DNA from: Patescibacteria group bacterium
GTDB lineage: Bacteria > Patescibacteriota > Patescibacteriia > DYGC01
Assembly (NCBI GenBank): GCA_036769805.1
Contig: DAIPKK010000001.1
Span: 1-55,715, forward strand
Direction: 5' to 3'
DNA length: 55,715 nt
The notes below the pieces were generated by a model. It had not been told where the DNA came from. It made no database searches and saw only the letters and a list, made by a program, of their open reading frames with translations. Position numbers and translations under genes: made by a program. Positions 1,549 to 42,609 of this stretch are shown piece after piece (within the stretch, counting starts at the first letter, position 1; the number at the start of each line of letters is the position of its first letter).

Positions 1549-2160
1549 ATGAGCAGAAAATTACATCCCACCCAAGAGGCGATTTTGCGCTTGTTGGAAG
1601 ACAATGTCACTGATCCGTTGACCATTCGGGAGATGCAGGACATTTTAACTTTATCAACGCCGAGCCTGGTTCATCATCATTTGATGCAGTTGGAAAAGAA
1701 AGGTTACTTGCGTCGCAATCCCAATGATCCGCAGGATTATCAGATTTTGGGTGATTCGCCGGAGCGTCAATTCGCGTATATCAATGTTTACGGTTTGGCG
1801 CATTGTGGTCCGAACGGTAGCATTTTGGATGGTAAACCGATCGATCGCATTCCGATTTCCACCAAAATTTTGGGATTTAAAGCGTCTGAGGCATTTTTCG
1901 TAAAAGCCAAAGGGGATTCCATGGTGGAAAAAATTCATGATGGCGATTTTGTCATTGCGCGTCGGCAGAACGTGGCGCGGGATGGTGAGATTGTAGTCTG
2001 TGTGAATAATGGGGAAGCTTTAATCAAACGTTTGCAAAAACATAAAAACCACGTGATTTTGGTTTCAACCAATGCTTCTTATCCGCCGTTTATTGCCAGT
2101 CACGATTTTCGCGTGGAGGGCGTGGTGAAAGGAATTTACGCTTATTTGCAGGGGATTTAA
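1549..2160 (+). CDS. lexA: LexA-type transcriptional repressor (S24 peptidase)
   Basis: N-terminal winged-helix region. C-terminal S24 domain with the catalytic Ser motif GDSM and Lys in ALIKRL. Confidence 0.85.
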   Translation: MSRKLHPTQEAILRLLEDNVTDPLTIREMQDILTLSTPSLVHHHLMQLEKKGYLRRNPNDPQDYQILGDSPERQFAYINVYGLAHCGPNGSILDGKPIDRIPISTKILGFKASEAFFVKAKGDSMVEKIHDGDFVIARRQNVARDGEIVVCVNNGEALIKRLQKHKNHVILVSTNASYPPFIASHDFRVEGVVKGIYAYLQGI

Positions 2161-2204
2161 AAAATTTGTTATAATAAATTTATTATAATAATAAAATCCT
2201 TCCA

Positions 2205-2822
2205 ATGATTCAAGCGATTGTTTTTGATATGAACGGCGTAATCGCCGACGATGAGCGTTTGCATGAAGAGGCCTATCGCCAGGTGATGACTAATCATGGT
2301 TTAACATTGAGTAAAGAGGAATATCAAAATGAATACATGGGCAGTCCCAACCCCGTAAATTTTAAAAAGATTAAGGAAAAATACGGGCTGGCGGAAGACG
2401 TGGAGACTTTGTTGCGCGAGAAAAGCGCCGCTTATTTGGAATTGGCGAAAAAATATTTAAAGCCGGTGGCGGGGGCGGAGCGGGCGATCAGAATTTTTGC
2501 CAAAAAACATCGATTGGCCTTGGTTTCTTCGTCTCCGTTGGAAGAAGTGCAAATGGTTTTGCAACATTTTCAAGTGGGCCAATATTTTTCCGTGATTGTC
2601 AGTGGGGACGATGTGAAAATCGGTAAGCCCGATCCGGAGCCGTATCTATTGGCGGCCAAGCGTTTAAAATTAAAACCGCATCAGTGCATGGCTTTTGAGG
2701 ATTCCAAGCAGGGAATTATTTCCGCCAAGGCTGCCGGTATGAAAGTGGTGGCGTTGAGCACTAATTTGTCGCCGGAAGATTTGAAATTGGCGGATGTGGT
2801 GGTGGGAGATTTTTTGTTTTAG
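2205..2822 (+). CDS. HAD-superfamily hydrolase, subfamily IA (beta-phosphoglucomutase/phosphatase-like)
   Basis: Motif I FDMNGVI, motif III GKPDPEPY, motif IV FEDSKQG. Confidence 0.75.
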   Translation: MIQAIVFDMNGVIADDERLHEEAYRQVMTNHGLTLSKEEYQNEYMGSPNPVNFKKIKEKYGLAEDVETLLREKSAAYLELAKKYLKPVAGAERAIRIFAKKHRLALVSSSPLEEVQMVLQHFQVGQYFSVIVSGDDVKIGKPDPEPYLLAAKRLKLKPHQCMAFEDSKQGIISAKAAGMKVVALSTNLSPEDLKLADVVVGDFLF

Positions 2823-5508: not shown

Positions 5509-6768
5509 ATGGTTAGTATAGAATCACATCGTACCCTGCATGATTTGGAGGGACAGGCGAAAAGAAACAGTGAACGGAAGCATCCGGAAATTTTTGATTC
5601 TAAGAGTTCATCTGCAGTGGAACTCCAAAAGGGTACGCAAGTTTTTGGTACTGATTTGGAGGCGCGGAGTTTGCGATCGACTGATGAAGAAATCACGGAG
5701 AGACTTCCGGAAGATTTTCAAAATTTTAAAAAAGAGCAGGAGTTTGATTTGGCAGAAGCAAAAAGAAATTTGGATCGTACTAAATCACAGATTGATGATT
5801 TTGTGAAAAATATGGAGAGTGATTGGAAAGAGTGGCGTACTAAAGTGAATGAAACTAAAGATTTTGATTATTTTAAAAAAGATTTTGAAACGTTCAGCCA
5901 AAATGTTTTGGTTAATTATAATGAAACGCGCCAAAGGGTGCGTGATAAATGGCAGGAGTTTTATGATTTGTATCAATCTTTAAATAATTTTGAAGAAAAT
6001 GCTGAAACAGAGTTTGGTGTGACCAGTGAAGCGGGTAAGGCGGCCGCTCGTTATAAGATTAATATGTCATATGGCCCATTGTTGGTTGAATATTTACAAA
6101 CCTTTCAAAATTACGATGAGCGTTTGGCTTCTTTGGAAAAACAATGGCAAAATTTGACGAATTTGTTTAATAAAAATGTAATTGAAAAAAGTAAGGCGGA
6201 ATATCGTGATTACAAAAGAATGGAAAAAATCGAGAAAACCGAGAAAAAGGATTCTGAAGATTTTGATTTGGAAATTAGGACCGTGGATGAACATTTTGAT
6301 TTACGTGCGGATAATGCTAAAAAAGTTGAATCGTTGTGGTCAAAATATAAATACACGGAAAATATTTATCAGTTTTTAAAATCGTTTTTGGCAACTAAAA
6401 ATTTTGGTGTTTCCGAGGGAGATTTATATGAGCACACTGATTTGGAATACGCTTTAATCAGTGATTTGGCTTTGGATAAAAACACTAAATTGTCAGGCTG
6501 GAGTACTGGTCAAATGTTGGAATATTATTATTCTCTGCCGGAGAAATATTCGGTGGCGCATTTGATGGCGGCGTTGGCGGCGTTTCAGCGTGGGGCGATA
6601 AAAAAGCGTTACGAAGATAAAAACTTGCCGATTGACGAGGATATTTTAAATCAAGATTCATATTATTTGAAAATTATTAAAGAATTGGCAGATACGCCTG
6701 AGCCTTTGGAGCGGTTAAGTAAAAAATCCGGAGATACGATTCCGCCGACGCAAGTAAATAAGAAATAA
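5509..6768 (+). CDS. hypothetical protein (419 aa, helical, charged)
   Basis: Long ORF with native codon usage. No recognisable domain, TM helix or signal peptide. Confidence 0.5.
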   Translation: MVSIESHRTLHDLEGQAKRNSERKHPEIFDSKSSSAVELQKGTQVFGTDLEARSLRSTDEEITERLPEDFQNFKKEQEFDLAEAKRNLDRTKSQIDDFVKNMESDWKEWRTKVNETKDFDYFKKDFETFSQNVLVNYNETRQRVRDKWQEFYDLYQSLNNFEENAETEFGVTSEAGKAAARYKINMSYGPLLVEYLQTFQNYDERLASLEKQWQNLTNLFNKNVIEKSKAEYRDYKRMEKIEKTEKKDSEDFDLEIRTVDEHFDLRADNAKKVESLWSKYKYTENIYQFLKSFLATKNFGVSEGDLYEHTDLEYALISDLALDKNTKLSGWSTGQMLEYYYSLPEKYSVAHLMAALAAFQRGAIKKRYEDKNLPIDEDILNQDSYYLKIIKELADTPEPLERLSKKSGDTIPPTQVNKK

Positions 6769-6780
6769 AATCAAAATATT

Positions 6781-8208
6781 ATGGCAGTTAATTTTGAAGA
6801 TCAAATTAAGAAACCACCGCCACTTCCACCCGTAATTGATGATATGACTGAAATCGCAGAGTACGAAGAATCTCCGGAGGAAGATTCGTTGGATGTGTTG
6901 ATTAAAAAAACGGAAGCTTTATTGTCGCCTAGGAGTTTGCGTAAGGATGTTGGTGTGGTGGGGCCGGCGGTAGAAAAATCAAAGGCTGAACCAGTGTCGG
7001 AATATCTTGAACCTTTGGAGAAAGGGGATTATGAAATTGTAGATGATTTGCCTGAACCAAACATAGAAACAGTCAAACAATATCAAGAATTGATGCGTAC
7101 CGGTGGTGTAGTGCATGTTGAAAATGAGGTTTCTTCAATTGGGGAAAACATTGAAACGTGGGGGGAAACCGGTTTAGTGCGTGGCATGAGCCATGTGTAT
7201 TCGGTTTACGAGGGATCAAAAGCCAGAGGAAATATGGATAAATGTGAGGATACGGTGGCTTTTAATCGTCAATCGAACATGATAGCTTTGGGTGATGGTA
7301 TGGGGGGCGTCGGTGATGGTGATTTGGCGGCAAAGGCATTTAAAAAAGGCATGGAAAATTTTGATTTGGGGGATTTTTCCGGGAAAACTGAGGAGGAAAT
7401 TAAGGGTTTGGTTTTTGAAAAATTTAAGCAGGTGGTTGATATGGTCAAAGACTCAGGTGGAAAAATTACCTGTTCGTCTGTTAAGTTTTATAAAGATGCC
7501 GAAGGTAAAAATAAGGCAATTATTGTTAATGTTGGTGATAGTGGTATTGTTCGTTTAGGGTCCAATGGTAAATTTGAGGAGCTAGGGGAATCAGATTCGG
7601 CATGGAATATGATTCAAGATAATTTTGGGAGTTTACAAGAGGTGCCAGCTCGTTGGGGGGAAGTTTTAAATAGTATGGGATATAAGGCAAATGAGGATTA
7701 TAAGAAAGATTGTGAACAAAATGGGGATACAGTGGATGCGAGTAAATTGTTGAAGTTGATTGATTCGGAGGAATTTACTGCATATTTAGAGAAAGTCGGC
7801 AATCAAGTTTTTAAAGATAAAACTGATCCCAAATTTGATTTTCATGCGGTGATGAATTTTGTGGTAGCTGATCAAAGTATTGATGATGAAAAACGTAAAA
7901 ATATTTTAAATCTTTTTAAAAATATTAATCGTCAAACGACTAGTCACTTTGCTAGAATAACTCCTGATCATATAAAAATTATTGATGTTAATGAAGGCGA
8001 TCAGTTTATTCTTGGTTCAGATGGTTTGTTTGATAATATGGATAATAATCAGCTGCAAGAAGTTATGGAGTTCTGTGATTTTTCCACTCCGGAAGGGCAG
8101 GCTAAGGCGGCTGAATATATTAAATCTACACATGGTAATGGTGTTAATAAGAAGAAATATCACAAACCCGATGATGTTTCTTACGCGGCAGTGAAGTTTA
8201 ATGGGTAA
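6781..8208 (+). CDS. PP2C-like protein phosphatase domain protein with acidic/Pro-rich N-terminal extension
   Basis: PP2C motifs DKCEDTV, LGDGMGGVG, VNVGDSGIV, ILGSDGLFDNM, KPDDVSYAAV. About 150-aa low-complexity N-terminus. Confidence 0.65.
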   Translation: MAVNFEDQIKKPPPLPPVIDDMTEIAEYEESPEEDSLDVLIKKTEALLSPRSLRKDVGVVGPAVEKSKAEPVSEYLEPLEKGDYEIVDDLPEPNIETVKQYQELMRTGGVVHVENEVSSIGENIETWGETGLVRGMSHVYSVYEGSKARGNMDKCEDTVAFNRQSNMIALGDGMGGVGDGDLAAKAFKKGMENFDLGDFSGKTEEEIKGLVFEKFKQVVDMVKDSGGKITCSSVKFYKDAEGKNKAIIVNVGDSGIVRLGSNGKFEELGESDSAWNMIQDNFGSLQEVPARWGEVLNSMGYKANEDYKKDCEQNGDTVDASKLLKLIDSEEFTAYLEKVGNQVFKDKTDPKFDFHAVMNFVVADQSIDDEKRKNILNLFKNINRQTTSHFARITPDHIKIIDVNEGDQFILGSDGLFDNMDNNQLQEVMEFCDFSTPEGQAKAAEYIKSTHGNGVNKKKYHKPDDVSYAAVKFNG

Positions 8209-8287
8209 GTTTTTGGAAATTAGGGAAAATAAGATTGACAGAATTCTTGTTTTTTGGTTAATTATGACAGAAGGGAGGGTTTTTCAC

Positions 8288-8695
8288 ATGGACTTTAAAA
8301 AGGCGTATTTATTTAAGGTGATTCCAGCTTTCAATGACAATCCGGCAGTGAAAATTTGTTTGGAGCAGTATGAAAAAGCTGAAGAAATTTCCGAAGAGCA
8401 GGTTCATTTTTCCAAAGAATCTTGGCGGATATTTCGAGCAAGTTGGCAAATCAAATGGTTTTTGGAAGGTGAGGATTGGCCGGAAAAAAACAAATATTTG
8501 CCTCAGTTAGAAGCCGCATTTAAGATGTGGCTTGAAAAGCAGAAGGATTTTCAGCCGGAATCGGAAGAAAGTCTGCGTTGTGCTTTTTACCGCTGGAAGA
8601 TCAGTGATGTTCTGGTGGAAGAATTGGGGCATAAGGTACTTGATGCATGCATCCAAGAATTTGCGAATGCAATCTCGTCTGCTAAGTGCAAATGA
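8288..8695 (+). CDS. hypothetical protein (135 aa) with own promoter and strong SD
   Basis: ATG at 8288 lies 7 nt after GGGAGGG. Upstream promoter TTGACA (8235-8240)-17 nt-TTAATT. The ORF-track start at 8201 overlaps the preceding gene and is unlikely. Confidence 0.5.
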   Translation: MDFKKAYLFKVIPAFNDNPAVKICLEQYEKAEEISEEQVHFSKESWRIFRASWQIKWFLEGEDWPEKNKYLPQLEAAFKMWLEKQKDFQPESEESLRCAFYRWKISDVLVEELGHKVLDACIQEFANAISSAKCK

Positions 8696-8705
8696 GGGTT
8701 TTCAG

Positions 8706-8732
8706 GAATCGATTTTATCGGTTCTTTTTTTG
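8706..8732 (+). terminator. intrinsic terminator
   Basis: GAATCGA/TCGGTTC stem followed by a T8 run. Confidence 0.6.
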
Positions 8733-8738
8733 TTTTTC

Positions 8739-8767
8739 TTGACTTGCCTTTGATAATAAGCTATTAT
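8739..8767 (+). promoter_or_regulatory. sigma70-type promoter for the tRNA-Thr/tRNA-Tyr pair
   Basis: TTGACT, 17-nt spacer, TATTAT, about 35 nt upstream of tRNA-Thr. Confidence 0.6.
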
Positions 8768-8801
8768 TTTTATGTTCTAGAACCTTGAGGTTCGTCAACG
8801 C

Positions 8802-8874
8802 GCCAACATAGCTCAGTTGGTAGAGCAATGGTTTTGTAAACCATAGGTCGTGGGTTCGAATCCCTCTGTTGGCT
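8802..8874 (+). tRNA. tRNA-Thr (anticodon TGT)
   Basis: Acceptor stem GCCAACA/TGTTGGC, anticodon loop TTTGTAA, T-arm GGTTCGAATCC. Confidence 0.9.
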
Positions 8875-8891
8875 CTAGTTTCTTTAAAAAT

Positions 8892-8973
8892 GGGTCGGTT
8901 CCCGAGTGGTCAAAGGGGGCAGACTGTAAATCTGCTGGCTCCGCCTTCGGTGGTTCGAATCCGCCCCGGCCCA
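8892..8973 (+). tRNA. tRNA-Tyr (anticodon GTA), long variable arm
   Basis: Acceptor stem GGGTCGG/CCGGCCC, anticodon loop CTGTAAA, long extra arm, T-arm GGTTCGAATCC. Confidence 0.9.
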
Positions 8974-8983
8974 CAAGTATGAA

Positions 8984-9007
8984 AGACTCGCTAAAGCGGG
9001 TCTTTTT
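8984..9007 (+). terminator. intrinsic terminator after the tRNA pair
   Basis: AGACTCGC-TAAA-GCGGGTCT hairpin followed by a T run. Confidence 0.7.
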
Positions 9008-9245
9008 GATTATATGTGATTGGTTTGGTGTAAGGGCGGATGAGAAGTTTATCCCCGGTCTTGAACTTTGATTCGTCTGATGTCAGCGTTGTTGAAATTT
9101 TGTTGAAAGCTACCAGCTTTAAGTGGTTCTTTTGTCCTGTCTGATGGGCTATGATGTTATTTTTTGTTTTTGTGTGTTTTATAATGTGAAGTGATGTAGT
9201 TTGTTTCAAATAATTGGTTTTTTGTCGCCCCTTGTTTTTTGTCTT

Positions 9246-9350
9246 GTCATCCTGAACTTGTTTCAGGATCTTTAATGTGTGACAGTAAGTTGATTATGAT
9301 AATGGTGATTATTTTTTGTATTAAAGATTCCGAACCAAGTTCGGAATGAC
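9246..9350. repeat. GTCAT-hairpin repeat, inverted pair (type A, copy 1)
   Basis: GTCATCCTGAACTTGTTTCAGGATCTTTAAT ... ATTAAAGATTCCGAACCAAGTTCGGAATGAC. Each arm is its own 8-bp hairpin. Confidence 0.75.
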
Positions 9351-9473
9351 AATAACGACGTTTATTTAGATGAATCAGTGGTTCAAAAGCGTGAATTATC
9401 ACCGAAGCGGCGAGTTGGACTATGATTTTATTTGATGTTAATATAAAAAGACCTTAGTCATCAGGAAAATTTT

Positions 9474-9950
9474 ATGGAAATAAAAGTACAAAAATTAACG
9501 CCGGATTTGCAGGATTTGGCCTATGCCAAGCCCGGTGATGCCGGTTTTGATTTGCGCGCTTCCGGCGTTTGGGGAGAAATCAAAAATGGAGAAATCATTG
9601 ATATGCAAGCGGAGGAATATGTTTTGCCGACCGGCTCCCGCGTTCTGGTGAAATGTGGCATTAAACTCGCCATCCCCGATGGTTACTGGGGAAATATCCG
9701 CGATCGAAGCGGTTTAGCCGTGAAATTCGGGATTCATACCTTGGGGGGCGTGGTTGATTCTTCTTATCGTGGCGAAGTGGGCGTGATTGTAATAAATTTG
9801 GGAAATGAAGCGTTTGTCATCAAAAAAAATGAGCGTATCGCCCAGATGATTATCAGTCCTTGTGTTCAAGGAAATTTGTTGGCGGTGGATGAATTGGGAG
9901 AGGAGACGGTGCGTGGGGGCGGGGGCTTTGGTTCCAGTGGAAGAATTTAA
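9474..9950 (+). CDS. dut: dUTP diphosphatase
   Basis: Motifs GDAGFDLRA, RSGLAVKFGI, GVVDSSYRGEV, ERIAQMII, GGFGSSG. Confidence 0.9.
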   Translation: MEIKVQKLTPDLQDLAYAKPGDAGFDLRASGVWGEIKNGEIIDMQAEEYVLPTGSRVLVKCGIKLAIPDGYWGNIRDRSGLAVKFGIHTLGGVVDSSYRGEVGVIVINLGNEAFVIKKNERIAQMIISPCVQGNLLAVDELGEETVRGGGGFGSSGRI

Positions 9951-10975: not shown

Positions 10976-11362
10976 ATGACACAATCAAAACAGATTTACA
11001 AATGTGAAATTTGCGGAAACATGGTGGAAGTGATTCACATCGGAGTTGGCACTTTAGTTTGTTGCAATCAAGACATGACTTTAATTCCGGAAAATTCCAC
11101 AGTTGGCGAAGCCAAGAAACATATTCCGATGATCACCGAAGAGTCCACCGGCGGTAGCCGCGTGACCATCGGGGAAATTTTTCATCCGATGACGGAAGAG
11201 CATCACATTGAATGGATTGAGGTGACCACTTTGAACGGTGTTTTCAAACATAAACCGGAAATTGGCACAGAACCGAGCTTGAAATTGCCGGTGCCGGTCA
11301 GTGAGATTAAAGAAGTGCGTGCTTATTGTAATATTCATGGTTTGTACGTGAAGCAGTTATAA
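10976..11362 (+). CDS. dfx: desulfoferrodoxin (2Fe superoxide reductase)
   Basis: N-terminal desulforedoxin CxxC...CC motif (YKCEICGNMVEV...LVCCNQ) and SOR centre EEHHIEWIE ... CNIHGL. ATG at 10976 chosen because upstream codons overlap a repeat. Confidence 0.85.
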   Translation: MTQSKQIYKCEICGNMVEVIHIGVGTLVCCNQDMTLIPENSTVGEAKKHIPMITEESTGGSRVTIGEIFHPMTEEHHIEWIEVTTLNGVFKHKPEIGTEPSLKLPVPVSEIKEVRAYCNIHGLYVKQL

Positions 11363-29489: not shown

Positions 29490-30473
29490 ATGCAAACCAT
29501 TGGTTTATTTTTTGGCGGTCCGAGCAATGAACATGAAGTTTCAATCAGTTCTGCCAAAAATATTGTTGCTAATTTTCCCGATAAAAAATATAAGTTGCTT
29601 TTAGTTTTTTGGGATAAACAGGGAAAATTTTATCTTGTCAAAAATATTGATGATTTGCGAAAAAATCGCCAAGCGATTGTTGAGGAAAAATTAAAAGAAA
29701 AGATTGATATTGCTTTATTGATGACCCATGGAAAAAACGGCGAGGATGGGGGTTTGCAAAGTTTGTTGGAATCACAAAAGATAAAATATTGTGGTTGCCG
29801 ACCGTTGAGTTCAGCGTTGTGTATGGATAAAGGTTTGTTTAAACAGTTTTTGGCGGGGCAAGGCATTAAACAAGTGAAATTTTCCGTACTTGATTATAAT
29901 TTGCACACTGATCGGGAATTATCAGCGATTAAGGATAGCATTAGGAAAACTTTTAAATTGCCGATTTATGTAAAGCCTGCCAATTCCGGTTCTTCAGTGG
30001 GAATTACTAAAGTTGTAAAATTTTCTCAGTTGCCGGAGGCGCTTACGGAGGCTTTAAAGCATGATAATAAAATCGTCGTGGAGGAGGGTTTGCTTAATCC
30101 CAGAGAAATTGAAGTGGCGGTTTTGGGTAATAAGGAATTAAAAATTTCCAGCCCGGGAGAGTTGCAGTTGGCCAAGGATTTTTACAGTTATGATGATAAA
30201 TACAACTTGGGGCAGGCGACGGTGCAAATTCCAGCGAAATTATCTTTGAAACAAAAGAACGAAATCGCAAAGTTGGCGGAACGTGTTTATAAGTTGTGTC
30301 TTTGCTCAGGGTTTGCTCGAATCGATTTTTTTATTAGTGATAACCAGGTTTATTTGAATGAAATTAACACCTTACCGGGATTTACCAATATTTCCATGTA
30401 CCCAATGTTAATGATGAATACCGGTATGACTTATCAAGATTTGATTATCGCCATTTTGCAATTAGCATATTAG
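29490..30473 (+). CDS. ddl: D-alanine--D-alanine ligase
   Basis: FGGPSNEHEVSISS, HGKNGEDGGLQSLLE, an ATP-grasp core, and C-terminal NEINTLPGFT. Confidence 0.9.
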   Translation: MQTIGLFFGGPSNEHEVSISSAKNIVANFPDKKYKLLLVFWDKQGKFYLVKNIDDLRKNRQAIVEEKLKEKIDIALLMTHGKNGEDGGLQSLLESQKIKYCGCRPLSSALCMDKGLFKQFLAGQGIKQVKFSVLDYNLHTDRELSAIKDSIRKTFKLPIYVKPANSGSSVGITKVVKFSQLPEALTEALKHDNKIVVEEGLLNPREIEVAVLGNKELKISSPGELQLAKDFYSYDDKYNLGQATVQIPAKLSLKQKNEIAKLAERVYKLCLCSGFARIDFFISDNQVYLNEINTLPGFTNISMYPMLMMNTGMTYQDLIIAILQLAY

Positions 30474-30517
30474 TTTTTGGTGTAATGTTAATTTTGTTTT
30501 TTGTATTGATTTTTAAT

Positions 30518-30699
30518 GCCGCCCATTAGCCCGAGGAGGTAAAAATTTGAAGGTGAGTTGGCTTGGTTTTGGCAAAGCCAAAATCCGAGCAGTTTGTTCG
30601 AGTCAACCGTTTTGGCTTTAAGAAAGACAAAACGGTGACGAGTTTGCGAGGAAAAGCCGGCGAACCTTATAAATTTTCCGTTCGGGCTAGCAGGGCGGC
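30518..30699. repeat. structured non-coding element, copy 3 (longer, inverted relative to copies 1 and 2; candidate sRNA)
   Basis: The reverse complement aligns with copies 1/2 at both arms, the CGAAC..GTTCG hairpin and the CTCACCT..AAATTTT..ACCT..CTCGG strand. Arm helices change sequence but keep pairing. A T6 tract follows on the + strand. I tentatively favour + here. Confidence 0.6.
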
Positions 30700-30817
30700 G
30701 TTTTTTGGTGCCACCTTTTGTACACACAAAAGGTGGCAAAGGGATTGTTTACAAACCCCAAATCAAAATGCTACAATCATTTAATACGATTATAATTTTT
30801 TAATTGAATAAAATCCT

Positions 30818-32635
30818 ATGGAATTGGAACAAATCAGACATTCTTTGTCTCATGTCATGGCGCAAGCGGTGACGGAATTGTACCCGGGCGTGAAAGTGGC
30901 TATCGGTCCGGCCATTGATACCGGTTTTTATTATGATTTTGAATTTCCGACCGGCGTCACTTTGTCCACTGATGATTTGCCGAAAATTGAAGAAAAAATG
31001 AAGGAAATTTTGAAGAGCAAGCAGACTTTTGTTCGTGAAGAATTATCCATTGAAGAAGCTAAGAAAATGTTTGCCGATCAAAAATATAAAGTGGAATTGA
31101 TTGAAGATTTGGCTAAAAACGGTGAAACCAAGGTTTCCATTTATAAAAATGAAGCTAACGGTGAATTGAAGTTCGTAGATTTGTGTCGTGGGCCACACGT
31201 TGACAGTACTGATGAATTGCCGAGCGATGCTTTTAAATTGAATAAGGTGGCCGGTGCTTATTGGCGCGGTGATGAAAATCGTGAAATGTTGACTCGTATT
31301 TACGCTTTGGCTTTTGCCGATAAAGTGGCTTTGGACGAACATTTAAATTTTTTGGTGGAAGCGGAAAAGCGCGATCATCGAAAATTGGGTAAAGAATTGG
31401 AATTGTTTCATATTGATGAGATGGTTGGTAAAGGTTTGGTTTTGTGGATGCCCAAAGGGGCGTTGTTGTGGCGCGTGATGGAAGAATATTGGTATAAAAA
31501 ACATTTGCGTAGCGGTTATGAATTGGTGCGCACTCCGCATATTGGTAATCGTAAATTATGGGAAACTTCCGGTCATTGGGGATTTTACAATGATAGCATG
31601 TATCCAACGATGGAAGTTGGGCAGAGTTTAGGTTCTGCGCAAAAAGGTGAAAAAGCTAAAGTGAAAGAAGAATATTTGATCAAGCCGATGAATTGTCCGT
31701 TCCATGTGGTTATGTACGGCTCCAAATTGCGCAGCTATCGTGAATTGCCGATTCGTTGGGCGGAAATGGGCACGGTTTATCGTTATGAGCAATCCGGTGA
31801 ATTGTCCGGTTTAACCCGCGTTCGTGGTTTTACTCAGGATGATGCTCACATCATTTGTACTAAAGAACAAGTGAAAGAAGAGTTGTTGCGAGTTGCCAAG
31901 TTTATCATTGAAATGTTGACTGATTTTGGTTTTAAAGATTATAAGATTTCTTTATCGGTGCGTGATCCGGAAAATACCGTCAAATATGCCGGCAATGATG
32001 AGGGTTGGGCGCATACGGAAAAAGTTTTGGAAGAAGTCGCTACCGAATTAAATTTGGATTACAGCAAGGAAGTGGGCGAAGCGGCGTTTTATGGTCCGAA
32101 GTTGGATTTTAAATTAAAAGATGCCATTGGTCGCACCTGGCAATGTTCCACTTTGCAATTTGATTTCAATTTGCCGGAACGTTTTGATTTAACTTTCATC
32201 AATGATAAGGGAGAGACCGAACGTCCGTACATGTTGCATCGTGCTTTGCTTGGTTCTTTTGAACGTTTTATAGGCGTGATGATTGAAAACTTTGCCGGAG
32301 CTTTGCCGTTTTGGGTGGCGCCGGAGCAAGTGCGTTTGATTTCCGTGGCTGATAAACATATTGATAAAGTCAAAGAATTGCAAGCGGAATTGGCGGCGAT
32401 TGACGTGCGTGCCAAAGTCGATAGCAGTAGTGAAACCATCGGCAATAAGATTCGTAAAGCGGCCGGTGACAAAGTGCCTTACACCGTGGTAATTGGTGAT
32501 AAAGAAATTGAAAATTTGAATGAATTGAATATTAAGGTTTTCGGTTCCAAGGATAATGTTTTGTTGTCTTGGGATGATTTCAAGGAAAAATTGGTGGGGA
32601 AGAATCAAGATAAGGCGATTGGCTACGAGATTTAG
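30818..32635 (+). CDS. thrS: threonine--tRNA ligase (no N-terminal TGS domain)
   Basis: Starts in the editing domain (IRHSLSHVMAQAV). Class II core with RVRGFTQDDAHI and an anticodon-binding C-terminus. Confidence 0.9.
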   Translation: MELEQIRHSLSHVMAQAVTELYPGVKVAIGPAIDTGFYYDFEFPTGVTLSTDDLPKIEEKMKEILKSKQTFVREELSIEEAKKMFADQKYKVELIEDLAKNGETKVSIYKNEANGELKFVDLCRGPHVDSTDELPSDAFKLNKVAGAYWRGDENREMLTRIYALAFADKVALDEHLNFLVEAEKRDHRKLGKELELFHIDEMVGKGLVLWMPKGALLWRVMEEYWYKKHLRSGYELVRTPHIGNRKLWETSGHWGFYNDSMYPTMEVGQSLGSAQKGEKAKVKEEYLIKPMNCPFHVVMYGSKLRSYRELPIRWAEMGTVYRYEQSGELSGLTRVRGFTQDDAHIICTKEQVKEELLRVAKFIIEMLTDFGFKDYKISLSVRDPENTVKYAGNDEGWAHTEKVLEEVATELNLDYSKEVGEAAFYGPKLDFKLKDAIGRTWQCSTLQFDFNLPERFDLTFINDKGETERPYMLHRALLGSFERFIGVMIENFAGALPFWVAPEQVRLISVADKHIDKVKELQAELAAIDVRAKVDSSSETIGNKIRKAAGDKVPYTVVIGDKEIENLNELNIKVFGSKDNVLLSWDDFKEKLVGKNQDKAIGYEI

Positions 32636-32689: not shown

Positions 32690-32771
32690 GTCATGCCGAA
32701 CTTGTTTCGGCATCTTTAATACGTTGGAGGCTGGTCTTATATTAAAGATCCTGAAACAAGTTCAGGATGAC
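32690..32771. repeat. GTCAT-hairpin repeat, inverted pair (type A, copy 2)
   Basis: GTCATGCCGAACTTGTTTCGGCATCTTTAAT ... ATTAAAGATCCTGAAACAAGTTCAGGATGAC. An extra GGATGACAGA half-site lies at 32807-32816. Confidence 0.75.
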
Positions 32772-32843
32772 AGAATCGTCGTTTGGCATTATATAAATGC
32801 CATATCGGATGACAGACAGCCATTTTATCATTAAATCTTTCGC

Positions 32844-42274: not shown

Positions 42275-42365
42275 TTTTTAATTTTTGTTACGCCTACTAC
42301 GTTTATTCGCGATAATATTTTTGAACTGACAAATATGACAAAATTTTTGTGTCGTCCATTGGTAG

Positions 42366-42498
42366 TGCAACTCTTAATTTTTCTTTCGCCCTCCTGGTCC
42401 GAACGGAAAATTTTGGGTTCGTTTTCGTGTTAACTCAAACTCACCTCAAAATTTTAACCTTCTCGGACCAATGGGCGGCATAAAAATTAAGAGTCGCA
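42366..42498. repeat. structured non-coding element, copy 2
   Basis: Near-identical to 1273-1409. Same CTCTTAATTTTT/AAAAATTAAGAG inverted repeat, here extended by TGCAA/TCGCA. Confidence 0.6.
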
Positions 42499-42527: not shown

Positions 42528-42545
42528 GCCGCCTATTAGCTTGTG
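42528..42545 (+). repeat. 18-nt motif GCCGCCTATTAGCTTGTG (second copy)
   Basis: Exact match to 1254-1271. Confidence 0.7.
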
Positions 42546-42609
42546 GACAACTTAAAAAAAGTTTACGTTAATTTAACGTTCACTATGCTATAATGAGTAA
42601 AAATAAATT

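Follow-up and report, generated by a model that had tools for sequence, protein, structure and literature searches.

A dispersed palindromic repeat family with covarying structure in Falkowbacteria-like Patescibacteria, and a putative terminator-like copy downstream of ddl

CPR bacteria have very small genomes, and to our knowledge almost nothing has been described of their non-coding repertoire; our literature search on CPR turned up no paper dealing with repeat elements or with structured RNAs of intergenic regions. Among the dispersed repeats of other bacteria, Correia elements carry 26-bp terminal repeats, a TA duplication and an IHF site and are present in hundreds of copies. ERIC sequences, according to what Wilson and Sharp are said to have reported in 2006, are patchy at orthologous sites and show both size variants produced by internal insertion or deletion and compensatory changes.

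Dispersed elements of this kind have been described (PMC3184786). ERIC, or IRU, is a 127-bp MITE of the Enterobacteriaceae that forms a long imperfect palindrome, shares the transcript of the upstream gene and can influence mRNA stability, with terminal inverted repeats and TA target duplications (PMC3184786). Correia elements, MITEs of Neisseria of about 104–157 bp, come in a long and a short version, distinguished by an internal segment, give rise to long RNA hairpins and vary in location among closely related strains, whereas SPRITE is a dispersed intergenic repeat with an intrinsic-terminator-like fold located near gene 3' ends (PMC3184786). BOX of S. pneumoniae is built of modules, conserved at its ends and variable between them; it is transcribed and occurs close to competence genes (PMC3184786). 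Finally, REP, BIME and REPIN sequences are palindromic units of 3' UTRs that form mosaics of alternating orientation, with proposed roles in termination and mRNA stabilisation (PMC3733652).

Here, we analysed a 55,715-nucleotide stretch of a Patescibacteria genome (hereafter the window), in which an original prediction made from the sequence alone had proposed three related structured copies. The one between ddl and thrS, copy 3, is best explained as a long (L) member of a family of imperfect palindromes that are dispersed in intergenic regions and restricted to a lineage of Falkowbacteria-like Patescibacteria, and most likely as a terminator-like 3' end of ddl; we assign this reading a probability of about 0.55. 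The family appears to be previously undescribed and narrowly distributed, and of a general kind that is already known (ERIC-, Correia- or SPRITE-like).

Anatomy and fold of the ddl–thrS element

Copy 3 occupies positions 30518–30699 (182 bases) in the spacer between ddl (29490–30473, +) and thrS (30818–32635, +). The closest named Ddl proteins belong to Candidatus Falkowbacteria and Patescibacteria, and the same strain, with an identical ddl–thrS spacer, occurs in several metagenomes; digester samples that contain it are JGI 3300009780, 3300010355 and 3300025871 and SRR5007225. The + strand at 30510–30745 showed a minimum free energy (MFE) of -112.9 kcal/mol (z -10.5), compared with -89.3 for the minus strand. 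The fold of copy 3 is a single nested irregular stem of about 45 bp (P1–P5), which encloses three hairpins and a 14-nt single strand. Its helices pair as GCCGCCC/GGGCGGC (P1), UUAGCCCGAG/UUCGGGCUAG (P2), GG/CC (P3), AAAAUUUGAAGGU/ACCUU-A-UAAAUUUU (P4) and GUUGGCUU/AAGCCGGC (P5), and an nhmmer profile of the arms matched all copies with E values of 1e-11 to 1e-14. The features of the spacer are as follows.

30474–30517, +: U-rich leader between the ddl stop codon (30471–30473) and the element
30518–30564, +: 5' arm, from the MFE fold, the nhmmer arm profile and pair counts; P1 30518–30524, bulged A 30525, P2 30526–30535, GA loop 30536–30537, P3 30538–30539, UA 30540–30541, P4 30542–30554, GA 30555–30556, P5 30557–30564
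30565–30653, +: exchangeable apical module, from folds; hairpins at 30565–30585, 30586–30600 and 30602–30639, then single-stranded GAGUUUGCGAGGAA at 30640–30653
30654–30699, +: 3' arm, from the MFE fold, the nhmmer arm profile and pair counts; P5 30654–30661, GA 30662–30663, P4 30664–30677 with bulged A 30669, P3 30678–30679, G 30680, P2 30681–30690, CA 30691–30692, P1 30693–30699
30700–30706, +: GUUUUUU tract right after the GC-rich closing helix, with terminator-like geometry
30709–30738, +: hp2, a second conserved hairpin of 13 bp with an ACAC loop, from the MFE fold
30748–30777, +: thrS promoter-like site, TTTACA, 18 nt, TGcTACAAT (-10 TACAAT with a TG extension)

The homology that had been proposed between the reverse complement of 30518–30699 and copies 1 and 2 was recovered, with 85% identity to 42438–42490 and 81% to 1347–1399 for the 5' arm, in addition to the 3' arm, and CCGAACGGAAAATTT occurs exactly three times in the window. 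The predicted T6 tract is located at 30701–30706, right after the closing stem. The extra segment of about 100 nt is closed, as proposed, by P5 with two U-G pairs on the + strand, but it holds three hairpins and not two; likewise, the separate downstream hairpin exists, but spans 13 bp at 30709–30738 instead of 10 bp at 30710–30737. In contrast, the loop–strand pseudoknot had been drawn from pairs that belong to the nested helix P4 (30542–30554 with 30664–30677), so in the modelled fold a pseudoknot is not needed. Nor is the CGAAC/GTTCG hairpin needed: enforcing it costs 21–27 kcal/mol in every copy tested. It shares nucleotides with P2, and P4 is incompatible with this hairpin when P2 also forms in its inner part. 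Among the other L copies, those at loci L016 and L017 keep four of the five pairs of the hairpin, and that at L031 has it broken. A LexA (Cheo) box reading of CGAAC...GTTCG was also dropped, as the spacing is 12–14 nt and not 4, and the motif is not conserved.

A U tract followed all four L copies found (GUUUUUU, GUUUUUU, GUCUUUU and UUUUUUUU) and none of the S copies described below. The hairpin hp2 also follows the L copies of L016 and L017, and a weaker counterpart was seen by eye in L031, where the hp2 profile gave no detection. In addition, TTTTTGGTG at 30474–30482 is a direct repeat of 30702–30710; similar U-rich direct repeats flank the L copies of L016 and L031. As they are seen at each locus, they may either belong to the repeat unit or represent a target duplication.

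We infer that the element, lacking a promoter of its own, would form the 3' end of the ddl mRNA, where its + strand would fold and most likely stop and/or protect the ddl transcript in the manner of an oversized intrinsic terminator, and that thrS would restart from its own promoter about 45 nt downstream. A GC clamp plus a U tract is found after all four L copies, and no other terminator was found for ddl. The L copy at L017 starts only 22 nt past the ddl stop codon (45 nt in the case of copy 3), which leaves no room for a promoter of its own. Against the terminator-like reading, intrinsic terminators are usually much smaller than a stem–loop of 182 nt.

The promoter-like site of thrS is located 3' of the element; its -10 box is kept in relatives without the element, whereas only filled alleles have the -35 block. 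An element with a terminator-like hairpin and a -35 box splits ddl from thrS, two genes that in sister strains are adjacent with no terminator between them. Its location upstream of thrS would also suit a cis-regulatory leader (T-box, operator or attenuator), as structured leaders are common on aminoacyl-tRNA synthetase genes. We regard this as very improbable: the promoter-like site is 3' of the element, in two close relatives thrS is retained behind a spacer of only 66 nt that lacks the element, the same element is also found after iscS and before comFC and comEC, and no T-box or other Rfam match was detected.

Covariation and strand polarity

The conserved structure of the repeat family is real. 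Along P1–P4 in seven copies, 94% of the arm cells pair, and changes on both sides were observed in nine of the 27 pairs, in agreement with the proposal that pairing in the arm helices is preserved despite their sequence differences. None of 500 shuffles reached the observed percentage of paired cells, the double-change pairs or cells, or the covariation score, although the count of further pair types did not exceed that of the shuffles (451/500); sliding the registers lowered pairing to 32–58%. Addition of homologues, a check named in the original prediction, strengthened the covariation rather than removing it, and the search for an Rfam match that would explain the family returned none.

The comparison of copy 3 with the L copy at L016 revealed 42 differing columns, 96.7% pairing and eight double changes, which are distributed among the main stem, hp2 and two of the apical hairpins (of three). 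The apical module showed four double compensatory changes, and hp2 a compensatory A-U to C-G change. Five further one-sided changes still pair, four of them involving wobble, and pairing was lost at five pairs, three of them in the core.

A possible coding origin bears on these substitutions. ORFs of 73–83 aa run across the element on both strands, and automated gene calls include a minus-strand ORF of 83 aa that covers the L031 copy and an ORF of 77 aa, truncated by the contig end, over the copy-3 region of L009. Nevertheless, the copies do not share reading frames, start sites or encoded sequences, and the substitutions are pairwise compensatory and not synonymous, so that a small protein gene has a practically negligible probability.

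The structure is also polar. There are 24 G-U cells on the element-sense strand versus two on the other, and the gene-sense strand of the L copies always folds better. Copies 1 and 2 gave -64.2 and -65.0 kcal/mol on the minus strand versus -53.1 and -55.0 on the + strand, and a third S copy gave -67.9 in the sense of the window's minus strand versus -59.5. Because the S copies fold better on the minus strand, the element-sense strand is the same one in all copies, and the orientation formerly put forward as tentative (+ for copy 3, minus for copies 1 and 2) agrees with the folding energies.

Several features that are not Watson-Crick pairs were kept even in the most divergent copy, namely the bulged A and the two wobble pairs (U-G and G-U) that close P2. 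Within the GA/G loop, the unpaired G and the A of the 5'-side GA are also invariant, and the tandem GA/GA between P4 and P5 is present in all copies but that of L031, with AA on its 5' strand. In addition, the single strand GAGUUUGCGAGGAAA (about 15 nt) is identical in copy 3 and L016 although the surrounding stems changed. Together, these features hint at specific recognition, or a partner, beyond simple termination.

Such constraints would be expected from a family of trans-acting or protein-binding small RNAs, in which stable L RNAs of about 185 nt are released from 3' UTRs, the stem acting as a protein-binding platform and the tip or single strand as the working part. The strong covariation, the one-strand G-U bias, the invariance of unpaired and wobble positions across divergent copies and the retention of GAGUUUGCGAGGAAA while neighbouring stems changed all fit it, and the U tract would define the 3' end. 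However, no conserved promoter was found 5' of the L copies, the tips are unrelated between copies and no partner protein was identified. We consider such RNAs an unlikely explanation, although one with some claim to attention, and come back to them with the S copies.

Short copies, relics and distribution in relatives

BLAST, motif and arm-profile searches showed three full copies and three relics in the window. Copy 3 is the L form, and copies 1 and 2 are short (S), inverted forms, that is, the reverse complement of the arms with a tip of only a loop of about 15 nt. The relics, of around 18–19 nt, were absent from the original prediction.

1254–1271, +: L-form 5'-arm relic GCCGCCTATTAGCTTGTG, adjoining copy 1 on the left
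1273–1409, minus: copy 1, tip-less S form with P0 and outer stem CACCAC/GATGGTG; covariance model score 95.4 bits on the minus strand
42351–42367, +: degenerate 5'-arm relic GTCGTCCATTGGTAGTG, left of copy 2
42366–42498, minus: copy 2, S form carrying P0, outer stem TGCAA/TCGCA; covariance model score 100 bits on the minus strand
42528–42546, +: 5'-arm relic GCCGCCTATTAGCTTGTGG fused to the comEC promoter block; arm profile E 0.04

The S copies carry an added 12-bp helix, P0 (CTCTTAATTTTT/AAAAATTAAGAG), plus an outer stem that differs per copy; identity over the full element among the S copies of four loci is about 90–97%. Their copy-specific inverted flanks (CACCAC/GATGGTG, TGCAA/TCGCA and CCCGCC/GGGCGGG) suggest either insertion into small palindromes or snap-back copying. 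No clear target-site duplication was found, S copies having these inverted flanks instead. At all sites, S copies adjoin L copies or L relics in opposite orientation: L copies are always gene-sense relative to the upstream gene and directly follow its stop codon, and S copies are always opposite. The relic at 42528–42546 looks like what remains of an L copy of the L016 type that was deleted between two TTGTGGA repeats.

Around eight loci of the family were found in all. An exact-pattern scan of a metagenome collection recovered seven stretches, three of them real (L011, L014 and L016); as the window's own JGI contigs are not among the matches, the collection gives no copy number. These three come from the same metagenome as the window and represent unrelated loci: L011 and L014 presented an S copy at another locus, and in L016 half of an S copy (its left part) is joined to a second, complete L copy, 3' of type IV secretion-like genes and 5' of comFC. 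No further copies were detected by the arm covariance model in 215,677 bases of related loci. When 185,579 species genomes were scanned for the exact pattern, the only two matches were due to chance and fell in genomes of high GC content; at that stringency, the family is not present in representative genomes. Three scans of viral contigs returned nothing or chance hits in phage contigs of about 67–69% G+C, and BLAST against phage and plasmid records gave no match.

Orthologous loci of relatives were reached through the flanking proteins. L017, whose Ddl is 91% identical, showed at ddl–thrS an L copy with homologous arms and an unrelated, GC-rich tip of 62 nt, whereas in L019 (Ddl 91%) and L024 (86%) the ddl–thrS spacer measures just 66 nt and has no element. 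These empty spacers keep TTTCTGG..GTGGCAAA, which resembles the edges of hp2. In L031 (IscS 86%), a full but divergent and poorly folding L copy (z -0.9), which is decaying, was found in the orthologous iscS–lexA spacer, at the same position where the window has only the 18-nt relic at 1254–1271 followed by S copy 1. The spacer upstream of comEC, occupied in the window by S copy 2, is empty in L025 and L027 and holds a different palindromic element in L030. The distribution of the element does not follow the ddl tree. The apical module of copy 3 is common only to the L016 copy (86% identity), the L copies of L017 and L031 carry unrelated modules, and none of the apical modules was found elsewhere as an independent repeat.

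The family behaves as a dispersed repeat because it occupies unrelated loci, differs in presence or absence among strains 86–91% identical in Ddl, swaps its tips, leaves relics and has S copies of about 90–97% identity; in addition, other palindromic repeat families occupy equivalent sites in the same clade and genomes. The original prediction implied a defined RNA gene of 182 nt, or a dedicated regulator linked with ddl and thrS, and this was not supported: the spacer is empty in two close relatives, the element appears at unrelated loci with swapped apical domains and truncated relics, and an inverted derivative has recently multiplied, all of which is the behaviour of a dispersed repeat. 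The family would spread and rearrange as DNA, the S form being probably an inverted, tip-less derivative with an added closing helix that multiplied recently, and L copies would be gained, lost, truncated or re-tipped between close strains.

The same data bear on the small RNAs considered above. The S copies in other 3' UTRs, with perfect complementarity of up to 15 nt to the L arms, could act as targets or decoys, and the opposite polarity of L and S would accord with this. On the other hand, both partners are locked in very stable hairpins, and the loss from close relatives together with the decay of L031 argues against an essential RNA.

Alternatively, the hairpin could be the single-stranded DNA substrate of a strand-specific recombinase or transposase (a HUH/Y1 enzyme, as in REP/REPIN or IS200/IS605 ends, or an attC-like system), with the RNA fold as an incidental outcome. 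Elements of 105–190 nt do not match the 20–40 nt of such units, and neither a GTAG/CGTC end tag nor attC R boxes were found, nor a Y1, RAYT or IntI gene among the genes examined, even though the absence of terminal direct repeats or target-site duplications recalls Y1 elements. G-T pairs are tolerated on one strand only, the elements keep a fixed orientation with respect to co-directional genes, insertion of S copies is next to or within L copies and REP-like doublets exist in the same genome, all as such a substrate would have it; the conserved U tract, however, is explained more easily at the RNA level, and opposite L and S orientations are not predicted by a simple replication-strand bias. 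We judge a DNA substrate to be decidedly unlikely. In the window and the annotated loci (all but L011 and L014), no transposase, integrase or reverse transcriptase was found; in the window, this check covered Pfam-scanned genes, the rest being assigned from orthologues, and the genes of L016 were included.

A combined scheme, which we offer as a long shot, would make the irregular stem the recognition platform of an undescribed CPR system for RNA or single-stranded nucleic acid, with the tips as swappable cargo or effectors and the S form arising by snap-back (self-primed) copying of the 5' leader. Such copying would explain the copy-specific, perfectly matched outer stem of every S copy without target duplication. 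If true, it would represent hairpin-primed or RNA-mediated spread, which is not known for bacterial repeats.

Other features were observed around these loci. A second, smaller palindromic family, GTCAT(C/G)C(T/C)GAACTTGTTTC(A/G)G(G/C)ATCTTTAAT, is located at 9244–9277, 9322–9350, 32690–32722 and 32741–32772 of the window, at 6175–6195 of L035 and at 27–45 of L025. Covariation is seen in its stems (CCTGAA/TTCAGG, GCCGAA/TTCGGC, TCCGAAC/GTTCGGA). The pair of copies located after thrS is an inverted, REPIN-like doublet, and the same hairpin lies at the end of contig L035. The 500-nt non-coding stretch between a tRNA pair and the dUTPase gene (window 8975–9473) holds copies of this smaller family and, at about 9219–9232, a P1-like fragment, TTTTTTGTCGCCCC; it gave no Rfam match at threshold. 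In L030, an unrelated 84-nt palindrome containing GTAG is present upstream of comEC (7126–7209), and L017 showed two GGGCGAATAATTATTCGCCC units where dtd is missing (9833–9946) and a GC-rich structured block plus T7 after its L copy (about 11210–11350).

A near-identical block of 50 nt precedes comEC (window 42541–42595) and comFC (L016 1660–1712, minus strand), with a DnaA-box-like TGTGGA(T/C)AA and the palindrome ACGTTAA-T-TTAACGT between a TTTACG -35 and a TGCTATAAT -10, which suggests a shared competence-gene regulator or a promoter duplicated together with the repeat. A palindrome, GCTACAATACCAATGTAGC, overlaps the -10 of the lexA promoter (window about 1483–1503), with GCTATATTGTTTATATAGC at the same place in L031, and is probably the LexA operator of the lineage. 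Compared with window positions 2160–2205, L031 has in its 7501–9535 region, where lexA is followed by the HAD hydrolase gene in the window, two intervening genes that the window lacks, of 383 aa (with a faint N6_Mtase match) and 305 aa. Finally, hypothetical ORFs of 77–83 aa from public gene calls lie over the element at 30488–30739 (-) and 30563–30784 (+) of the window, 4188–4421 of L009 and 6550–6801 of L031; not being conserved between copies, they are repeat artefacts.

Comparison with known systems

Rfam 15, which includes T-box, 6S, Y RNA, SRP, ribozymes and IS605-associated RNAs, was searched against the window, and only tRNAs reached threshold; permissive scans of copies 3 and 2 gave only weak chance matches, such as miRNA-precursor hairpins, and L011, L016, L017 and L019 gave nothing. 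Two candidate likenesses were dropped. The UUGGUCCGAG of the S copies resembles what we take to be the 5' strand of human Y5 RNA, but this helix covaries freely in the L copies and no Rfam Y RNA match was obtained. An integron attC was discarded as well, given that R''/R' ends (RYYYAAC...GTTRRRY) are missing and the neighbours are housekeeping genes with their own promoters.

The family shares with MITEs its terminal inverted repeats around a short non-coding core (complementary arms of about 45 nt, no conserved ORF) and its dispersed copies with strain-variable presence (about eight loci, empty sites in L019, L024, L025 and L027). In contrast to MITEs, no direct target-site duplication was found to flank the S copies. 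Its ends, GCCGCCC/GGGCGGC, are untagged and no RAYT was seen in this incomplete genome, which separates it from REP and REPIN sequences. A SPRITE-type or intrinsic terminator geometry was observed in all four L copies but not in the S copies.

The window shows that such a small genome still carries several structured palindromic repeat families that remodel operon boundaries, and the one described here provides a clean, small test case in which RNA-level constraint (covariation and one-strand G-U bias) is combined with DNA-level spread. For annotation, the element explains spurious ORF calls of 73–83 aa.

With respect to each of the described systems, the L copies resemble SPRITE in having a GC clamp and a U tract right after stop codons, but there is no sequence relation, the stem is of about 45 bp with an exchangeable tip of up to 100 nt and a second hairpin, and the S form has no U tract. 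The long imperfect palindrome in intergenic regions recalls ERIC, from which the family differs in phylum and in sequence, and also in that no target duplication was seen. As in Correia elements, there are long and short forms, long hairpins and a location that differs among close strains; however, the short form is here inverted with respect to the long one and has an added outer helix, and none of the terminal repeats, TA duplication, IHF site and copy number of Correia has a counterpart shown here. S and L copies adjoin in opposite orientation as in REP and BIME mosaics, although REPs are of 20–40 bp, usually GTAG/CGTC-tagged and tied to RAYT, in contrast to an untagged element of 105–190 nt with no RAYT seen. 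Finally, the family resembles BOX in its variable middle between conserved ends and its proximity to competence genes, but BOX varies by tandem boxB units, whereas here the middle is replaced by unrelated modules.
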